Shown here: positions 1 through 6,866 of the stretch, in pieces
How positions within the stretch are numbered: the first letter of the stretch is position 1
Layout of the letters: each line of letters starts with the position of its first letter
Source: a virus
Lineage: Duplodnaviria; Heunggongvirae; Uroviricota; Caudoviricetes
IMG/VR virus record: IMGVR_UViG_3300049597_000266
Length of the DNA: 6,866 nucleotides
Strand: one strand, 5' to 3'
The notes under the pieces: model-generated
Seen by the model: the letters and a program-made list of their open reading frames with translations, nothing else
The model's database searches: none
What the model was told of the DNA's origin: nothing
Program-made: the position numbers and the translations under genes

Positions 1-318
1 AACCCGCTGGCAAACCGCAAGCAGAATCCTGCCAATCTCTTTACCGCTGCAGAGGAAACGGTGATCGAACTGGAGGAAGTCCAGGACGACAAACCGTCCC
101 TGTTTTCCCGCGTCACGGCGCTGTTCACCAAAAAAGAGCAGTCCGATGACGCCCGGTTCTCTGATGTGCATAAGGCCGTGGAGCTGGTCGCCACTGAGCA
201 GCAAAACCTGAGCGCGCGAACCGAAAAATCTCTGTCTGAGCAGGAAGAACGCCTGTCTGAACTGGAGTCTGCTCTGCAGAAGCAGCAACGGGCAATGCCT
301 GTAGTTCCACACTGGTGA
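1..318 (+). CDS. Partial CDS (5' end outside window) for a hydrophilic, coiled-coil-like protein of unknown function, upstream of the lysis genes
   Basis: Frame 1 is open from nt 1 to TGA 316-318 (106 codons). Translation reads ...NPLANRKQNPANLFTAAEETVIELEEVQDDKPSLFSRVTALF...EERLSELESALQKQQRAMPVVPHW. It is E/Q/K-rich with no hydrophobic segment. GC content and codon usage match the flanking phage genes. No family recognised by eye. The ORF-track start at GTG 61 is arbitrary because the frame continues to the window edge. Confidence 0.35.
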   Translation, partial: NPLANRKQNPANLFTAAEETVIELEEVQDDKPSLFSRVTALFTKKEQSDDARFSDVHKAVELVATEQQNLSARTEKSLSEQEERLSELESALQKQQRAMPVVPHW

Positions 319-458
319 AATTGCTCAATCAGCGGCGCTGGGCAGATGCGTGCCGACAGTTGCCGCGCTGGGTTTATGTAAAAGGTGTGTTTAATCAGGG
401 GCTGGATAACCGCCGTGCGCGGGAGATGGCCTGGTGCCTTAAAGGAGCTGGACTATGA
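261..458 (+). pseudogene. C-terminal remnant of a GH24 (T4/P21-type) phage endolysin; N-terminal catalytic part absent
   Basis: Frame 3 between TGA 258-260 and TGA 456-458 translates to TGSCSAEAATGNACSSTLVKLLNQRRWADACRQLPRWVYVKGVFNQGLDNRRAREMAWCLKGAGL. This matches my recollection of the C-terminal motif of P21 R / RrrD-type lysozymes (GN..STLL.K.NQ....AC.QL.RW.Y..GK...GL..RR..E..CL). The stop overlaps the lysB ATG (ATGA), the usual endolysin-spanin junction. Upstream of 258 all three + frames lack lysozyme-like sequence and frames 2 and 3 contain stops (209-211, 237-239, 258-260). No ATG lies within the remnant. Confidence 0.5.
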
Positions 459-883
459 CGCGTGCGCTGGCAGTAGTGGTGGCGCTGGCACTCGTTGCGC
501 TGGGCTGGCAGTCGTGGCGGCTTAACAGCGCCAGCCACACCATCGAAACGCAGCGCGCGGCGCTGAAAAGTAAAGCGCAGGAACTGACGAAGAAAAACAG
601 CCAGCTTATCAGCCTGTCCATTCTGACTGAAACCAATAACCGGGAGCAGGCGCGGCTCTATGCCGAAGCAGAACAGACCAGTGCACTGCTGAGACAACGA
701 CAACACCGGATCGAGGAACTGAAACGTGAGAACGAGGATTTACGCCGCTGGGCTGATACTCCTTTGCCTGCTGACATTATCCGGCTGCGGGAACGTCCGG
801 CACTCACCGGAGGTACAGCTTACCGTCAGTGGTTGTCCGCGAGTGACGCCGTGTCGGCTGGATCAGGCAACGCCGCGCACTAA
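455..883 (+). CDS. lysB: LysB, Rz-like inner-membrane spanin (i-spanin)
   Basis: 142-aa ORF with ATG 455 preceded by AAGGAG (442-447). N-terminal hydrophobic helix (ALAVVVALALVALGW), then a coiled-coil-like region (QRAALKSKAQELTKKNSQL...RQRQHRIEELKRENEDLRRW). The C-terminal ENEDLRRWADTPLPADIIRLRERPA resembles my recollection of P2 LysB. Position directly after the endolysin and before lysC/R fits. Confidence 0.85.
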   Translation: MTRALAVVVALALVALGWQSWRLNSASHTIETQRAALKSKAQELTKKNSQLISLSILTETNNREQARLYAEAEQTSALLRQRQHRIEELKRENEDLRRWADTPLPADIIRLRERPALTGGTAYRQWLSASDAVSAGSGNAAH

Positions 884-1016
884 CGGTGATCTGAACGCGT
901 TGCTGGATGAAACGGAGGCCGCCTGGGCGGTCTGTGCAGACAAAGTGGACATGATTATTGCGTGTCAGGAGCGAAACAGTGAACAAACCACAATCCCTGC
1001 GCCACGCCCTCAATAA
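726..1016 (+). CDS. lysC: LysC, Rz1-like outer-membrane lipoprotein spanin (o-spanin), in the +1 frame overlapping lysB
   Basis: 96-aa ORF beginning inside lysB in another frame and extending 133 nt past the lysB stop (overlapped architecture, as in P2). N-terminus MRTRIYAAGLILLCLLTLSGC has a positively charged start, hydrophobic core and lipobox L-S-G-C. Mature part is Pro/Cys-containing with a proline-rich C-terminus (TTIPAPRPQ). GAGGAA lies 8 nt upstream of GTG 726; the exact start codon is uncertain. Confidence 0.8.
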   Translation: MRTRIYAAGLILLCLLTLSGCGNVRHSPEVQLTVSGCPRVTPCRLDQATPRTNGDLNALLDETEAAWAVCADKVDMIIACQERNSEQTTIPAPRPQ

Positions 1017-1410
1017 AGCGGTGCCTTATGTCCGCAATAACCCGGACAAACTGCATCTGTTTGTGGATAACGGTTCGCTGGTTGCCACGGGGGCCAGCTC
1101 CATGTCGTGGGAGTACCGTTACACCCTGAACGCGGTGATTGAGGATTTCAGCGGCGACCAGAATCTGCTGATGGCCCCGGTTTTGCTGTGGCTGCGGGAT
1201 AACCAGCCCGATGCCATCAATAACCCGGCGTTACGGGAAAAACTATTTACCTTTGAGGTGGATATTCTGCGCAACGATGTCTGTGATATCAGCCTTAACC
1301 TGCATCTGACGGAACGTGTGCTGGTCAGCACTGACGGCAGTGTGTCGAGCGTTGAAGCTGTAGCAGAACCCGATGAACCTGAAGAAATGTGGACGGTGAA
1401 ACGTGGCTGA
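979..1410 (+). CDS. R: Tail completion protein R (P2 gpR-like)
   Basis: ORF reading MNKPQSLRHALNKAVPYVRNNPDKLHLFVDNGSLVATGASSMSWEYRYTLNAVIEDFSGDQNLLMAPVLLWLRDNQPD... resembles my recollection of P2 gpR. Start chosen as GTG 979 with AGGAG at 967-971; the ORF-track start at TTG 958 is an alternative. The start overlaps the lysC 3' end, and the TGA stop at 1408-1410 overlaps the S start. Confidence 0.8.
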   Translation: MNKPQSLRHALNKAVPYVRNNPDKLHLFVDNGSLVATGASSMSWEYRYTLNAVIEDFSGDQNLLMAPVLLWLRDNQPDAINNPALREKLFTFEVDILRNDVCDISLNLHLTERVLVSTDGSVSSVEAVAEPDEPEEMWTVKRG

Positions 1411-1849
1411 ACTGCAGACGGTGGACGACTGGCTTAGTGCCTTACTGGCGAATCTGGAACCAGTCGCAAGAAGCCGCATGATGCGCCAGCTGGCGCAGGA
1501 ACTGCGCCGGACACAGCAGCAGAATATCAGGATGCAGCGCAATCCAGATGGCAGCAGTTATGAACCGCGCAAGGTCACGGCGCGCAGTAAAAAAGGCCGC
1601 ATCAAACGTCAGATGTTTGCAAAGCTGCGCACCACCAAATACCTGAAAACCGCCGCCAGCGCCGACTCTGCCAGCGTACAGTTTGAAAGTAAGGTGCAGC
1701 GCATTGCCCGCGTTCACCATTATGGCCTGCGCGATCGCGTCAGCCGCAAAGGACCGGAAGTGCGTTACGCAGAGCGTCGTTTGTTGGGTCTTAATGGTGA
1801 GTCTTACGTTCTAACTCGTGATATATTGAATAGATTCCTTCTGTCTTGA
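1403..1849 (+). CDS. S: Tail completion protein S (P2 gpS-like); last ~17 codons lie in the AT-rich island (probably a chimeric C-terminus)
   Basis: 148-aa ORF with motif LEPVARSRMMRQLAQELRRTQQQNIRMQRNPDGSSYEPRK matching my recollection of the P2 gpS N-terminal region. GTG 1403 overlaps the R stop by 8 nt. From about nt 1798 the codons become AT-rich and rare for enterobacteria (cta, ata, aga) up to the stop at 1847-1849. Confidence 0.8.
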   Translation: MAELQTVDDWLSALLANLEPVARSRMMRQLAQELRRTQQQNIRMQRNPDGSSYEPRKVTARSKKGRIKRQMFAKLRTTKYLKTAASADSASVQFESKVQRIARVHHYGLRDRVSRKGPEVRYAERRLLGLNGESYVLTRDILNRFLLS

Positions 1850-2597
1850 ATTCACCATATGCCCAATGAATTGCATTTTTTTGTTCAGTCAGAATATATT
1901 TCCTAACTTTTTTAGAATAGTGAATGGTCAGTATAAAACCCAAAGAAATCCATAATAGAATAAATATGGTTGTTGGGGCAAAGGAATAGATAAAGAATTT
2001 GTCTTTAACGAAATTCTTGACTTCTTCATCAATGTAAGTATTCCCTTCATCAGAGGTTAGTAGTTTACAAAGAATTTCTTTATGTTCTATAGTTAATGAT
2101 TTGTACTTCTCTGTACTGGCAGAGGATGACTCTTCGCAATCATCTTTTGATATTTCCCAATCAGGAGTGGTTAATATTGTAGCTGCAGTCGCCAGTTTTT
2201 TTGACATATAAAATGATTCACCGGACTTTATCCAATAAAGCAATGTGCTATTTGGTGGGGTTCTAATGGCTTGGATGAAAACTGGACCAAAAATATAAAT
2301 TGCACACAAAAAAAGAAGTGAAAAGAGAACCGTGATTGATTTTTCAGCCCATGTGATAGTAGGCAGCCTTTTTAATGATATTCGTATAAGAAAAAAATTT
2401 AATATAAACGCAGGTATTCCTGATTTTTTCAAAATTACATCATGAGATTTTCTATATTTGAATAGTGCTCTTATAACTATCGTCACCAAAGTTATAACAG
2501 CTCCAATAATGGAAATCCATGCGGCAAGTGCCGCTGCCGGGGTGTTTAAAAATTCAGCATTAAATATATTAGAACTTATTGGATTCATAACACTCAT
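1791..2597 (-). CDS. Hypothetical four-helix integral membrane protein (268 aa) encoded by the AT-rich moron; function unknown
   Basis: An 807-nt ORF uninterrupted in ~30% GC DNA, where stops are frequent by chance. ATG at 2597 (minus) is preceded by GGTGGATAA (RBS-like). Four hydrophobic segments: AAALAAWISIIGAVITLVTIVIRALF, IPAFILNFFLIRISL (weaker), ITVLFSLLFLCAIYIFGPVFIQAI and FFIYSFAPTTIFILLWISLGFILTIHY. A hydrophilic, acidic ~90-aa domain sits between helices 3 and 4. Its 3' end overlaps the S 3' end convergently by 59 nt. No homology recognised. Confidence 0.65.
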   Translation of the reverse strand: MSVMNPISSNIFNAEFLNTPAAALAAWISIIGAVITLVTIVIRALFKYRKSHDVILKKSGIPAFILNFFLIRISLKRLPTITWAEKSITVLFSLLFLCAIYIFGPVFIQAIRTPPNSTLLYWIKSGESFYMSKKLATAATILTTPDWEISKDDCEESSSASTEKYKSLTIEHKEILCKLLTSDEGNTYIDEEVKNFVKDKFFIYSFAPTTIFILLWISLGFILTIHYSKKVRKYILTEQKNAIHWAYGEFKTEGIYSIYHELERKTHH

Positions 2598-2700
2598 TTA
2601 TCCACCTATTGGTTGTTTTTTATCCTTTTATCAATTTGTACCATCGATACCACAATTTGCAAGAAGTTATAAACAAGTTTTCAGCTGTCATCATATATCT
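1795..2700. other. AT-rich island (~30% GC against ~55% in flanks) at the S-V junction; probable horizontally acquired moron
   Basis: Abrupt compositional shift visible by eye. One 60-nt sample (1861-1920) counts 17 G+C (28%). The island carries one long ORF on the minus strand and is bounded by the tail genes S (left) and V (right). No terminal inverted repeats or target-site duplications were seen. Confidence 0.7.
2637..2654 (+). promoter_or_regulatory. TGT-N12-ACA dyad, candidate Ogr/Delta-type activator site of the P2 late promoter for the V operon
   Basis: Sequence TGT ACCATCGATACC ACA at 2637-2654 (palindromic core ATCGAT), flanked by direct repeats CAATTTG (2632-2638 and 2653-2659). 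It lies about 55 nt upstream of the V ATG, in the intergenic region between the divergent moron ORF and V. P2 late promoters are known to carry TGT-N12-ACA centred near -55. The -10 and transcription start are not resolved; TATAAA at 2669-2674 and TATAT at 2694-2698 are candidates. Confidence 0.35.
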
Positions 2701-3279
2701 ATGAACGCACAACTAACCGAAATCATGCGCCTTATCACCAATCTGATCCGCATAGGTGTAGTCACCGAAGTGGACCGGGAAAACTGGCTTTGTCGGGTGA
2801 AAACGGGCGACCTTGAAACCAACTGGATCAGCTGGCTGACGCTGCGCGCGGGTAATGCCCGCACATGGTGGCGACCATCGGAAGGTGAGCAGGTGGTGCT
2901 GCTGAGTCTGGGCGGCAATCTGGAGACTGCCTTTGCGCTGCCCGCTGTCTATTCGAATCAGTTCGCACCACCGTCGACGTCGGCGGACGCCTGCGTGACA
3001 GAACATCCTGACGGTGGCTGGTTTGAATACGAACCCGCCACCGGGCGCTGGTATGTCAGGGGCATCAAATCAATGGTCATTGAGGCCGCTGATAACATCA
3101 CCATGAAAACCAGTGAGTTTGTACTGGAGGCTGACCGCACGCGCATTAACAGCGAAGTGGTGATCAATGGTGGCGTTACCCAGGGCGGCGGAGCGATGAG
3201 TTCTAACGGGATCGTGGTTGATGCGCATCAGCATACTGGCGTCCTGAAAGGCGGCGATACAACCGGAGGCCCGGTATGA
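2701..3279 (+). CDS. V: Baseplate assembly / spike protein V (P2 gpV-like)
   Basis: 192-aa ORF, MNAQLTEIMRLITNLIRIGVVTEVDRENWLCRVKTGDLETNWISWLTLRAGNARTWWRPSEGEQVVLLSLGGNLETAFALPAVYS..., matching my recollection of P2 gpV (..IRTGIIVETD..CRVQTG..WLTHRAG..RTWWAPSVGEQV..GGELDTAF.LP). Start placed at ATG 2701, the first ATG after the AT-rich intergenic region; ATG 2725 is an alternative. No clear Shine-Dalgarno. The ORF-track extension back to 2458 is rejected. Confidence 0.85.
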   Translation: MNAQLTEIMRLITNLIRIGVVTEVDRENWLCRVKTGDLETNWISWLTLRAGNARTWWRPSEGEQVVLLSLGGNLETAFALPAVYSNQFAPPSTSADACVTEHPDGGWFEYEPATGRWYVRGIKSMVIEAADNITMKTSEFVLEADRTRINSEVVINGGVTQGGGAMSSNGIVVDAHQHTGVLKGGDTTGGPV

Positions 3280-3635
3280 CGCTTTATAGCGGGATGAACA
3301 ATACCAGCGGCAAAGTCATTACTGATATTGACCATCTGCGCCAGTCGGTGCGGGACATTCTGCTGACGCCGCAGGGTAGCCGCATTGCTCGCCGTGAATA
3401 TGGTTCCCTGCTGTCGGCACTGATAGACCAGCCACAAAATCCGGCGTTACGCCTGCAGGTCATGTCGGCAGTGTATGTGGCGCTGAGTCGCTGGGAGCCA
3501 CGGCTGACGCTGGATTCCATCACCATTAACAGCAATTTTGACGGTTCAATGGTGGTGGGACTGACCGGGCGGCGTAATAACGGTGTGCCTGTTTCCCTTT
3601 CCGTATCAACAGGAGCAGAGAATGGCAGTGATTGA
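3276..3635 (+). CDS. W: Baseplate wedge protein W (P2 gpW, T4 gp25-like)
   Basis: 119-aa ORF with ATG overlapping the V stop (ATGA) and GGAGG 8 nt upstream. Sequence ...RQSVRDILLTPQGSRIARREYGSLLSALIDQPQNPALRLQVMSAVYVALSRWEPRLTL... is typical of the GPW/gp25 family. Confidence 0.9.
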   Translation: MTLYSGMNNTSGKVITDIDHLRQSVRDILLTPQGSRIARREYGSLLSALIDQPQNPALRLQVMSAVYVALSRWEPRLTLDSITINSNFDGSMVVGLTGRRNNGVPVSLSVSTGAENGSD

Positions 3636-4530
3636 CCTTTCGCAGTTGCCTGCGCCGCAGATTGTCGATGTGCCGGACTTTGAGACGTTGCTTGCCGAAC
3701 GCAAGGCCGAATTTGTTGCGCTTCATCCGAAAGATGAGCAGGAAGCCGTGATCCGCACGCTGGAACTGGAATCTGAACCCGTCACCAAATTGCTGCAGGA
3801 GAATGCTTACCGTGAGTTGCTTCTGCGCCAGCGCATTAACGAAGCCGCGCAGGCGGTGATGGTGGCTTACGCGATGGGCGGCGATCTTGACCAGCTCGCT
3901 GCCAACTACAACGTGAAACGCCTGACGGTGACGCCTGCTGATAATGACGCTGTGCCGCCCGTTGCGGCTGTGATGGAAAGCGATGAAGCGTTACGCCTGC
4001 GTGTGCCTGCAGCCTTTGAAGGGCTTTCAGTTGCGGGGCCAACTGCAGCCTATGAATTTCATGCCCGAAGCGCCGACGGTCGGGTGGCGGATGCCAGTGC
4101 AACCAGTCCGGCACCTGCAGAGGTGGTACTGACTGTCCTTAGCCGTGAAGGCGACGGAACAGCAGAAAAAGACCTGCTGGATGTGGTGGAAAAAGCCCTG
4201 AACAGTGAGAACGTCCGCCCGGTGGCTGACCGTCTGACGGTTCGCAGCGCAGAAATCATCCCGTATCGCGTGGAAGCCACCATTTTTCTCTATCCGGGAC
4301 CGGAAGCAGAGCCGGTAATGGCAGCGGCAAAAGCCAGCCTGCAGAAGTACATCGCCAGTCAGACGCGTCTTGGTCGGGATATTCGCCGTAGCGCCATCTT
4401 TGCCGCCTTGCATGTTGAGGGTGTGCAGCGTGTGGAGCTGGCTTCTCCTCTGGCGGATGTGGTCCTGAACAAAACACAGGCGGCATCATGTACGCAGTGG
4501 AGCGTAACCAACGGAGGAACGGATGAATAG
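3622..4530 (+). CDS. J: Baseplate assembly protein J (P2 gpJ-like)
   Basis: 302-aa ORF from ATG 3622 with AGGAG at 3611-3615. Sequence MAVIDLSQLPAPQIVDVPDFETLLAERKAEFVALHPKDEQEAVIRTLELESEPVTKLLQENAYRELLLRQRINEAAQAVM...RLGRDIRRSAIFAALHVEGVQRVELASPLADVVL matches my recollection of P2 gpJ. Overlaps the W 3' end by 14 nt. The ORF-track start at 3583 is an in-frame upstream extension. Confidence 0.9.
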   Translation: MAVIDLSQLPAPQIVDVPDFETLLAERKAEFVALHPKDEQEAVIRTLELESEPVTKLLQENAYRELLLRQRINEAAQAVMVAYAMGGDLDQLAANYNVKRLTVTPADNDAVPPVAAVMESDEALRLRVPAAFEGLSVAGPTAAYEFHARSADGRVADASATSPAPAEVVLTVLSREGDGTAEKDLLDVVEKALNSENVRPVADRLTVRSAEIIPYRVEATIFLYPGPEAEPVMAAAKASLQKYIASQTRLGRDIRRSAIFAALHVEGVQRVELASPLADVVLNKTQAASCTQWSVTNGGTDE

Positions 4531-5043
4531 TCTGCTGCCACCGGGTTCAACACCACTGGAGCGCCGACTGGCGCAAACCTGCAGCGGGATTTCTGATCTG
4601 CAGGTGCCGCTTCGTGACTTGTGGAATCCGGCAACCTGTCCGGTCAGTTTCCTGCCTTATCTCGCCTGGGCGTTCTCTGTGGATCGCTGGGACGAGGACT
4701 GGACAGAAAGTGTCAAGCGCCAGGTGGTGAAGGATGCTTTTTATATTCATCAGCATAAAGGGACCACCAGTGCCGTGCGGCGGGTGGTGGAGCCGTTCGG
4801 CTTTCTGATCCGCATTATTGAGTGGTGGCAGACCGGATAAGCGATGCCAAACCATGCAGCCGTCACATGATCGGCATGTCCATCAACCTGCAGACCAGCG
4901 GCCCGCATTGGGTGGGAGCCGCCAGCTATCTTGGCGAAGAAATCACGATCTATCCGTATATCAACGAAACAATTATTTCCGGTGGCACCGCGCATGAAGG
5001 CGGGGCGGTCCATGTTATTGACACAATGAGAGTGAATCCATGA
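4523..5043 (+). pseudogene. I: Baseplate protein I (P2 gpI-like), interrupted by a frameshift near 4819-4840
   Basis: The N-terminal 105-aa ORF (4523-4840, frame 2) carries typical gpI motifs (LWNPATCPVSFLPYLAWAFSVDRWDEDW...VVEPFGFLIRIIEWW). The downstream ORF (4822-5043, frame 1) resembles the gpI C-terminus (DAKPCSRHMIGMSI...EEITIYPY). The two overlap by 19 nt, and the combined span (521 nt) is 1 nt short of a single ~173-codon gene. The ATG overlaps the J stop; the second ORF's stop overlaps the H ATG. Confidence 0.6.
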
Positions 5044-6662
5044 GCACAAAATTTTATACCCTGCTGACGGATATTGGCGCGGCGAAACTTGCCAGCGCCG
5101 CCGCGCTCGGTGTGCCTTTAAAAATTACCCATATGGCGGTCGGCGATGGCGGCGGAGTATTGCCAACGCCGGATGCAAAGCAGACTGCACTGGTGAATGA
5201 GAAACGCCGGGCTGCGCTGAATATGCTCTATATCGACCCGCAGAACAGTAGCCAGATTATTGCTGAACAGGTAATCCCTGAAAATGAGGGCGGTTGGTGG
5301 ATACGTGAAGTGGGCCTGTTTGATGAGTCCGGGGCATTGATTGCCGTGGGAAACTGCCCGGAAAGCTATAAGCCGCAACTGGCTGAAGGCAGTGGGCGTA
5401 CCCAGACCGTGCGCATGGTGCTGATTACCAGCAGCACGGACAATATCACCCTGAAAATCGACCCTGCCGTCGTGCTGGCAACCCGCAAGTATGTGGATGA
5501 CAAGGTACTGGAGCTGAAGGTGTTCGTGGATGATAAGATGGCAAAACATCTTGCCGCACCGGACCCGCATTCACAGTATGCACCCAAAGAAAGCCCGACA
5601 TTGACCGGAACACCCAAAGCGCCAACGCCAGCGGAGGGGAATAACACCACGCAGATTGCGACCACCGCGTTTGTTCAGGCGGCACTGATGGCCCTTATTA
5701 ATGGTGCGCCAGCCACACTGGATACGATGAAAGAAATTGCCGCTGCCATTAATAATGACCCGAAATTCAGTACCACCATTAACAATGCGCTGGCACTGAA
5801 AGCGCCGCTGTTAAGTCCGGCATTCACCGGAACGCCAACAGCCCCCACTGCCGCACAGTCGGTTAACAATACACAGATTGCCACCACGGCTTTTGTGAAA
5901 TCGGCAATTGCGGCAATGGTGGGGTCTGCACCTGCTGCACTGGATACACTGAACGAACTGGCTGCGGCGCTGGGGAATGACCCGAACTTTGCCACGACAA
6001 TGCTTAATGCGCTGGCAGGTAAACAACCGTTGGACAATACGCTGACTAATTTGAGTGGAAAGGATGTAGCTGGTCTTCTCGCATACCTTGGTTTGGGAGA
6101 TGCATTAATTGGTGATGAATGTAAAATTGCAGGGTTTGACAGTAGTAACGTCAATGCCCCGTATATGCGATTCGCCAGAACAAATACAGTAGTTCGTCTG
6201 GCAACAAAAGACTATGCGCAACCAAAAGACCAGACACTGACAGATTTAAGCGGTAAGGATAAGGCTGAACTAAGAACTTATCTTGATCTGAAAAGTGCGG
6301 CTCAAAGGGATGTTGGCTCAGGGGCAAATCAGATTCCGGATATGAATGACTTCACATCCAGCCTGACCAGCCCTGGCTGGCAAAAATTACCGTCAGGTCT
6401 GATTATTCAGTGGGGGGCAGCCAATCCATCATCAACTGGAGAGATCTTTATTACGTTTCCTGTCGCGTTCTCTGCATACCCGATGTATGTGGGATTTGGT
6501 CCTCAGCAGGCATCGCTTCCTAACGTAGTTCAGTCGCCAGTAATTTCAGCGCCAACGATAACTAATTTAGGATGCGGCGTCCGAAATCTGATGATTCCAA
6601 CAGCGGGCGGAGCACCAGTAGCCAGCATGAGTTCATTTTTCTGGATTGCGGTAGGGAAATAA
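5040..6662 (+). CDS. H: Tail fibre protein H (P2 gpH-like N-terminus with a divergent C-terminal receptor-binding region)
   Basis: 540-aa ORF. N-terminus MSTKFYTLLTDIGAAKLASAAALGVPLKITHMAVGDGGGVLP...GGWWIREVGLFDESGALIAVGNCPESYKPQLAEGSGRTQTVRMVLITSS matches my recollection of the conserved baseplate-attachment domain of P2 gpH. The region SPAFTGTPTAPT...NTQIATTAFV...LDTLNELAAALGNDPNFATTMLNALAGKQP also matches P2 H. The C-terminal third (from about 6030) is divergent and lower in GC. Confidence 0.9.
   Translation: MSTKFYTLLTDIGAAKLASAAALGVPLKITHMAVGDGGGVLPTPDAKQTALVNEKRRAALNMLYIDPQNSSQIIAEQVIPENEGGWWIREVGLFDESGALIAVGNCPESYKPQLAEGSGRTQTVRMVLITSSTDNITLKIDPAVVLATRKYVDDKVLELKVFVDDKMAKHLAAPDPHSQYAPKESPTLTGTPKAPTPAEGNNTTQIATTAFVQAALMALINGAPATLDTMKEIAAAINNDPKFSTTINNALALKAPLLSPAFTGTPTAPTAAQSVNNTQIATTAFVKSAIAAMVGSAPAALDTLNELAAALGNDPNFATTMLNALAGKQPLDNTLTNLSGKDVAGLLAYLGLGDALIGDECKIAGFDSSNVNAPYMRFARTNTVVRLATKDYAQPKDQTLTDLSGKDKAELRTYLDLKSAAQRDVGSGANQIPDMNDFTSSLTSPGWQKLPSGLIIQWGAANPSSTGEIFITFPVAFSAYPMYVGFGPQQASLPNVVQSPVISAPTITNLGCGVRNLMIPTAGGAPVASMSSFFWIAVGK
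5592..6029 (+). repeat. Two tandem ~72-aa (216-nt) tail-fibre repeat units within H
   Basis: Residues 185-256 (SPTLTGTPKAPTPAEGNNTTQIATTAFVQAALMALINGAPATLDTMKEIAAAINNDPKFSTTINNALALKAP) and 259-330 (SPAFTGTPTAPTAAQSVNNTQIATTAFVKSAIAAMVGSAPAALDTLNELAAALGNDPNFATTMLNALAGKQP) align over their full length with about 60% identity; nt 5592-5807 and 5814-6029. Confidence 0.8.
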
Positions 6663-6663
6663 T

Positions 6664-6866
6664 ATGTACAAATACAGTGCTAAAAAAAATGCGTTTTATC
6701 TGGCTGGTAATGAGGCCGTATACCGCGATTCCGGCACATGGCCTGATGATGCAAAAGATATTGAAACCCGACGTGCCGAGTCGTTTATGGCGACACCTCC
6801 GCAGGGTAAGCGACGTATTGCAGGTGCAGACGGAATGCCTGCGTGGGCAGATATTCCTTCACCCAC
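6664..6866 (+). CDS. Partial CDS (3' end outside window), putative tail-fibre assembly chaperone (gene G position)
   Basis: ATG at 6664, 1 nt after the H stop; frame open to the window end (67 codons): MYKYSAKKNAFYLAGNEAVYRDSGTWPDDAKDIETRRAESFMATPPQGKRRIAGADGMPAWADIPSP. Position immediately downstream of the tail fibre gene and the N-terminal NAFY...Y...G.WPDDA pattern suggest a Tfa-type chaperone. Assignment is mainly by synteny. Confidence 0.5.
   Translation, partial: MYKYSAKKNAFYLAGNEAVYRDSGTWPDDAKDIETRRAESFMATPPQGKRRIAGADGMPAWADIPSP

Follow-up and report, generated by a model that had tools for sequence, protein, structure and literature searches.

The stretch of DNA analysed (the window) was 6,866 nt long, and its first 458 nt held fragments of two late genes, followed directly by an intact pair of spanin genes. 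Frame 1 was open from 1 to 318 (translation NPLANRKQ...ESALQKQQRAMPVVPHW, then a stop). Its positions 1..288 (+ strand) were codons 146-241 of gpO, the capsid scaffold/protease gene, with 100% identity to positions 20001-20288 of the corresponding prophage locus (L004) of E. coli 20A24 (NZ_CP147044.1), where they lie within an intact gpO of 277 aa. gpO starts 435 nt before the window, within which its middle region is followed by the beginning of the C-terminal scaffolding domain. In an HMM search, the frame-1 product matched Pfam PF05929, "Phage capsid scaffolding protein (GPO) serine peptidase", with an E-value of 9e-22 over profile positions 142-236 of 268, and PHROG phrog_73 (head scaffolding protein) with an E-value of 1.2e-20. 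The part of GpO inside the window scored 78.4 bits against a PF05929 gathering cutoff of 33.6, and the whole ORF of the E. coli B prophage scored 352.5 bits. The first-pass annotation had described 1-318 as an unrelated coiled-coil ORF that might supply a different lytic activity. The open frame stood, but the product was the GpO scaffold/protease, whose gene normally lies about 3.1 kb upstream, and the lytic role fell away with its recognition as a 3'-truncated gpO.

After codon 241 the gpO frame continued through nine lysozyme-gene codons and a TGA (289..318, + strand; RAMPVVPHW), giving a fusion ORF (GpO') of 250 aa with its stop at 316-318. The scaffolding domain of GpO' was incomplete, 36 native residues being exchanged for nine out-of-frame ones, and the B protein matched the Pfam GPO profile only up to residue 243, at profile position 236 of 268. 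Residues 1-241 were identical to the intact 20A24 copy, including the N-terminal protease domain, which is encoded upstream of the window, and the middle region. RefSeq carries this CDS as WP_000216259.1, "GPO family capsid scaffolding protein", 250 aa.

Frame 3 was open from 261 to a TGA at 456-458. It contained a pseudogene fragment (K', 288..458, + strand) corresponding to residues 116-171 of a 171-aa P1-Lyz-like SAR lysozyme (56 codons, TGNACSSTLVKLL...KGAGL), recognised by a partial PF00959 match and by identity to the 3' end of the 20A24 lysozyme gene. The reading of 261-458 as the last ~65 residues of a lysozyme was correct in that a C-terminal GH24 fragment was present; the true remnant was only 56 aa, with homology beginning at 287/288, and the nine residues from 261-287 of the 65-aa ORF were gpO DNA read out of frame. 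The frame-3 product matched Phage_lysozyme PF00959 with an E-value of 7.4e-11, over profile positions 80-125 of 125 only, and PHROG endolysin families with E-values of 6e-23 and 2e-19. At 42.9 bits against a cutoff of 22.3, K' passed the threshold for family homology and is, judged by its profile match, a true fragment of a PF00959 family member, that is, a pseudogene. RefSeq likewise enters it as a pseudogene, "glycoside hydrolase family protein", incomplete and missing the N-terminus. K' had no start codon of its own besides a fortuitous GTG at 315.

The intact 20A24 lysozyme showed what the remnant had lost. This protein matched PF00959 over residues 39-161 and was most similar to the SAR endolysin Lyz of phage P1 (PDB 1XJT, E 2e-26). 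Its residues 9-60 comprised a hydrophobic segment and a conserved EGCRxxPYxCxAGVWTDGIGNT block, which we take to hold the catalytic Glu-8aa-Asp/Cys-5aa-Thr residues, as in the T4/P1 lysozyme family; all of this lay inside the deleted part. K' therefore had neither the full catalytic domain, the EGC..C..T block (residues 41-56) falling within the deleted residues 1-115, nor the SAR membrane anchor, the hydrophobic N-terminus CLVGAVLAIAATLPG falling in the same deleted part and the remnant starting at residue 116. These results agreed with the earlier statement that the catalytic N-terminal part is absent. They agreed also with its account of the upstream frames: several stops interrupted frames 2 and 3 before nt 260, and no lysozyme N-terminus was present in the + frames of 1-290, where frame 1 was GpO.

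The TGA of K' at 456-458 overlapped the ATG of lysB at 455 in the ATGA arrangement already noticed. The lysB gene (455..883, + strand), encoding an Rz-like inner-membrane spanin, was intact, with an AAGGAG ribosome-binding site upstream and a match to phrog_89 (E 9e-47). It was overlapped by lysC (768..1016, + strand), which encodes an Rz1-like outer-membrane lipoprotein spanin and was also intact (PF23793 LysC, E 6e-16; phrog_952). The accessions of LysB (WP_000196203.1) and LysC (WP_223704555.1) were the same in B and in the intact 20A24 prophage, which bore out the description of the spanins as intact. Next in the same late operon came the tail completion gene gpR (979..1410, + strand), intact by its PF06891 match (E 1e-45) and RefSeq annotation. 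S, the gene after R, had also survived intact. The identities of LysB, LysC and GpR, as assigned from these matches, are those of a P2-family late operon. Further downstream, a DUF6216 gene (PF19723, E 1.6e-11; 268 aa) lay antisense between S and V (1791-2597, - strand), the position of orf30 in P2. It overlapped the 3' end of S by 59 nt, was AT-rich (~33% GC versus ~57% in the flanks) and was also present in the intact 20A24 prophage; it is a typical moron, or possibly defence cargo.

TGT-N12-ACA dyads that match the Ogr/Delta-type late-promoter activator site of P2-family phages were located in the P-O intergenic region upstream of gpO (positions 19321-19338 of the B prophage locus L003) and upstream of gpV (window 2637-2654). 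A promoter and terminator scan of 1-2800 gave counts at or below shuffled expectation, and no internal promoter or terminator signal was detected at the scar. GpO'-K'-lysB-lysC-R-S probably still forms one transcription unit behind the putative Ogr-type late promoter upstream of gpO. An ogr-like gene was still present in the B prophage.

Junction and extent of the deletion

When the window was aligned with the intact 20A24 prophage, it matched in two pieces. Positions 1-288 corresponded to L004 20001-20288, and positions 287-4837 corresponded to L004 23435-27985 with 99.9% identity; a split match to two places 3148 bp apart is far beyond chance. The intervening 3148 bp (L004 20289-23436) were absent from B. 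A three-way alignment of the window with the gpO and K breakpoints of 20A24 placed the junction at 287..288 (no strand assigned), where AA was common to both parental breakpoints, a microhomology of 2 nt, and revealed zero non-parental bases. On the gpO side the break came exactly after codon 241 of 277, and on the K side it came at nt 347 of the 516-nt lysozyme gene, with 346 nt of K missing. No longer repeats or IS elements were found at the breakpoints, which had only the two nucleotides in common.

By comparison with 20A24, the missing segment began with the codons for GpO residues 242-277 (the last 36) and ended with those for lysozyme residues 1-115; between them lay N (major capsid protein), M (small terminase), L (head completion), the gene for tail protein X and the holin gene. 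The event thus went well beyond the loss of lysA and most of the endolysin first proposed: N, M, L and X, as well as the end of O, went along with the holin gene and two-thirds of K. The same split was found against phage genomes: window 1-288/293 aligned with 93-95% identity to the scaffold gene in P2-like phages of Klebsiella and Escherichia, window 287/288-1000 aligned to endolysin-lysB-R of the same phages with 91-97% identity (e.g., Cartapus), and the two matches were ~3.1 kb apart within the same records. In Cartapus and phage 500465-1 this interval contained the genes for the major capsid protein, small terminase, head completion protein, tail protein X and holin, and the 5' part of the endolysin gene.

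A single deletion would have joined codon 241 of gpO to nt 347 of the endolysin gene K at the AA microhomology. Illegitimate recombination or replication slippage would fit this pattern; site-specific or homologous exchange would not. The 2-nt microhomology and the zero extra bases argue for a simple deletion by one of these routes, so that of the "replacement or deletion" put forward earlier, the deletion was upheld and the replacement was not. With a probability of about 0.97, one 3148-bp deletion in the late "O operon" of a defective P2/186-like prophage of E. coli B left window 1-458 as its scar. The breakpoints, the genes lost, the lack of any inserted DNA and the confinement to the B lineage (below) were each shown, and nothing was found to contradict the deletion itself.

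The lysis cassette of B retained its two-component Rz/Rz1-like spanin. The holin was gone, the 20A24 holin gene (PF16080/PF04971; L004 22895-23110) lying inside the deleted interval. With the holin and the catalytic part of the endolysin both deleted, the cassette would be lysis-defective, as the first-pass annotation had supposed. Spanins act only once peptidoglycan is degraded, so the intact lysB and lysC would be stranded. Its gene content, read against general knowledge of P2 and of phage lysis, suggests that the prophage is unable to build heads, package DNA or lyse the cell.

The source prophage in E. coli B

The junction was present in 44 of the 5426 complete E. coli genomes, including those of REL606, BL21(DE3), C41/C43, NEB Express strains, ATCC 11303 and NCTC10537. 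By name these genomes were of the B lineage, apart from two with ambiguous labels ("strain C, cow's milk" and NCTC10537), whose match over these 6.9 kb was the same as that of the B genomes. The 346 nt of K were absent from all 44 assemblies, and no upstream frame restored a lysozyme after correction of a single indel.

In REL606 the locus was a P2/186-like prophage between rcdA and ybjL (ECB_RS04335-ECB_RS04500), containing an integrase, CI/CII-type regulators (the switch being of the 186 type), a replication endonuclease, an St85-family retron (Ec86/Eco1), the portal and the large terminase. In RefSeq the order continued with the 250-aa GPO CDS, the glycoside hydrolase pseudogene, lysB, lysC, R and S. 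The reverse transcriptase and effector of retron Ec86/Eco1 lay upstream of the window (L003 14417-16465), between the replication genes and the portal gene, and were retained identically in the intact 20A24 prophage. B/BL21 has been reported to carry a P2-like prophage bearing retron Ec86 (PMC3032704; bioRxiv 10.1101/2020.06.22.160242); the paper on the genome of E. coli W (PMC3032704) names the B prophage Rybb*B. The literature searched, which did not extend to the primary E. coli B genome papers, yielded only such general statements on the P2-like prophage and Ec86 and no printed description of the exact deletion. The truncated GPO CDS beside a truncated glycoside hydrolase is already in the public RefSeq annotation and in that sense already known; the scar is ordinary decay of a known defective prophage.

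A second deletion was found in the B prophage ~8.6 kb downstream of the scar, outside the window. It spanned ~6.9 kb from the DNA-invertase gene into gpD, had a 3-nt microhomology (TAC; L003 28419-28421) and removed the tail sheath, tube, E/E', tape measure, U and most of D. Both flanking genes were partial pseudogenes in RefSeq. Together, the two deletions would lock the prophage in the chromosome.

The window matched the B genomes over its full length, apart from three substitutions and 85 missing bases in gene I, all of which lay outside 1-458. The 85 bp, absent at 4837/4838 (gene I, 4523-4840), were present in all 44 B-lineage genomes and in 20A24, and the eight best-ranked complete E. coli genomes for the gene-I junction all carried them (8/8). 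The breakpoints of this gap had a GA dinucleotide in common, and the loss cut baseplate protein I from 201 to 105 aa, leaving its 3' part (4822-5043) out of frame. A genuine variant in a B derivative not yet sampled, an assembly error and an alteration of the sequence are all possible origins of this gap. Compared with both REL606 and 20A24, the substitutions were C for A at 1419 (GpS K6T), A for T at 2054 (DUF6216 protein T182S) and T for G at 2088 (silent). Identity to the 20A24 prophage ended at ~6100, inside the tail-fibre gene H (5040-6662); the C-terminal receptor-binding part of H and the downstream assembly genes (window 6100-6866) belonged to a different mosaic module adjoining the remnant invertase.

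Competing explanations and significance

The best surviving alternative, and still a very improbable one, holds that the deletion was selected and that the surviving protease domain of GpO', a 47-aa K' peptide starting at GTG 315, and LysB/LysC benefit the host. The surviving ORFs were all undegraded, and K', lysB, lysC and GpO residues 1-241 were identical to the intact copy. The late regions of REL606 and 20A24 differed, however, by only 1 mismatch in 5.9 kb, indicating that the deletions are recent, so the same identity is equally expected from a recent deletion and the undecayed K', lysB and lysC give no evidence of selection. The GTGA (315-318) and ATGA (455-458) overlaps could couple translation from GpO' to K' to lysB, but they were inherited from the parental sequences or are fortuitous, and no Shine-Dalgarno sequence preceded GTG 315. 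Defence-type cargo (retron Ec86 and the DUF6216 moron) was kept in the prophage, whereas the junction was confined to one clonal laboratory lineage with no sign of selection or recurrence. We thus think it highly doubtful that selection, as part of prophage domestication, favoured losing the genes for holin, endolysin and capsid, with the stop/start chain keeping a protease-bearing GpO', a lysozyme tail peptide and the spanins expressed for a host function. Were it true, the host role might be, e.g., envelope remodelling or abortive defence alongside retron Ec86.

Two further accounts have a negligible chance of being correct. Foreign DNA for a different, coiled-coil lytic or accessory protein might have taken the place of lysA and of the 5' portion of the endolysin gene, and the frame-1 product was indeed hydrophilic, helical and overlapping with the remnant; this was refuted by the identity of frame-1 DNA to gpO (100% in 20A24 and 93-95% in the Klebsiella/Escherichia P2-like phages), by the purely parental bases at the junction and by the absence of lysA from the 20A24 prophage, 99.9% identical to the window, and from Cartapus, so that lysA, too, had been wrongly counted among the losses. 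The other, in which the endolysin is in truth full-length but masked by a frameshift or an assembly collapse, was raised earlier and suits the switch of reading frames around nt 288, but it was refuted by an identical junction in 44 independently assembled complete B-lineage genomes, by a missing part of 3148 bp that is no mere indel and by the lack of lysozyme similarity in any frame upstream of 288.

A single 3148-bp deletion offers a base-pair-level explanation of why the P2-like prophage of BL21 and its relatives, the most used protein-expression strains, would form no particles and cause no lysis. The 20A24 prophage, as the intact natural counterpart, offers a possible route to rebuilding the ancestral phage that carried retron Ec86. 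The lesson for annotation is that an ORF next to a partial gene can represent the opposite flank of a deletion and need not have been inserted. The overall significance of the scar is small.

Intact relatives and the P2 lysis cassette

The closest counterparts of the B prophage were phage Cartapus (Elveevirus, Peduoviridae) and the intact prophage of 20A24, whose retron proteins and insertion site are those of B. In this comparison the likeness to B covered the attachment site, the retron and the order of late genes. LysB, LysC, R, S, DUF6216, V, J and I had the same protein accessions in B and 20A24. Identity to the window was 99.9-100% on both sides of the junction for 20A24 and 97% over K'-lysB-R for Cartapus. 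Unlike B, 20A24 and Cartapus retained the full O-N-M-L-X-holin-K block (3148 bp in 20A24) and the block from the tail sheath to D. Both lacked lysA, the endolysin gene overlapping lysB directly, which indicates that the lineage had no lysA at the time of the deletion. Phage 500465-1 and Klebsiella phages (4LV2017) had an extra 378-nt gene between K and lysB, and the window therefore aligned to them in two pieces. The undeleted 20A24 cassette (L004 22895-23606) combined an HP1/P21-type holin with a P1 Lyz-like SAR endolysin and had no lysA; the cysteines of this endolysin, at residues 9, 43 and 50, were reminiscent of the disulfide-caged Lyz of P1.

The lysis cassette of phage P2 has the order Y-K-lysA-lysB-lysC. 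The cassette of the B/20A24 lineage resembled it in where it sits in the operon (following L and X and preceding R and S) and in the overlapping LysB/LysC spanin pair. It differed from P2 in the absence of lysA even when intact, in its P1 Lyz-like endolysin and in its HP1/P21-type holin. The GpO proteins of P2 and B belonged to the same PF05929 family, but GpO' of B was without the last 36 residues of the scaffolding domain and ended in nine unrelated residues. In P2, the C-terminal domain of GpO (residues 195-284) is "absolutely required" for procapsid assembly (PMC7552001). Set against the P2 cassette, that of B had no holin, and its endolysin was reduced to a stub.
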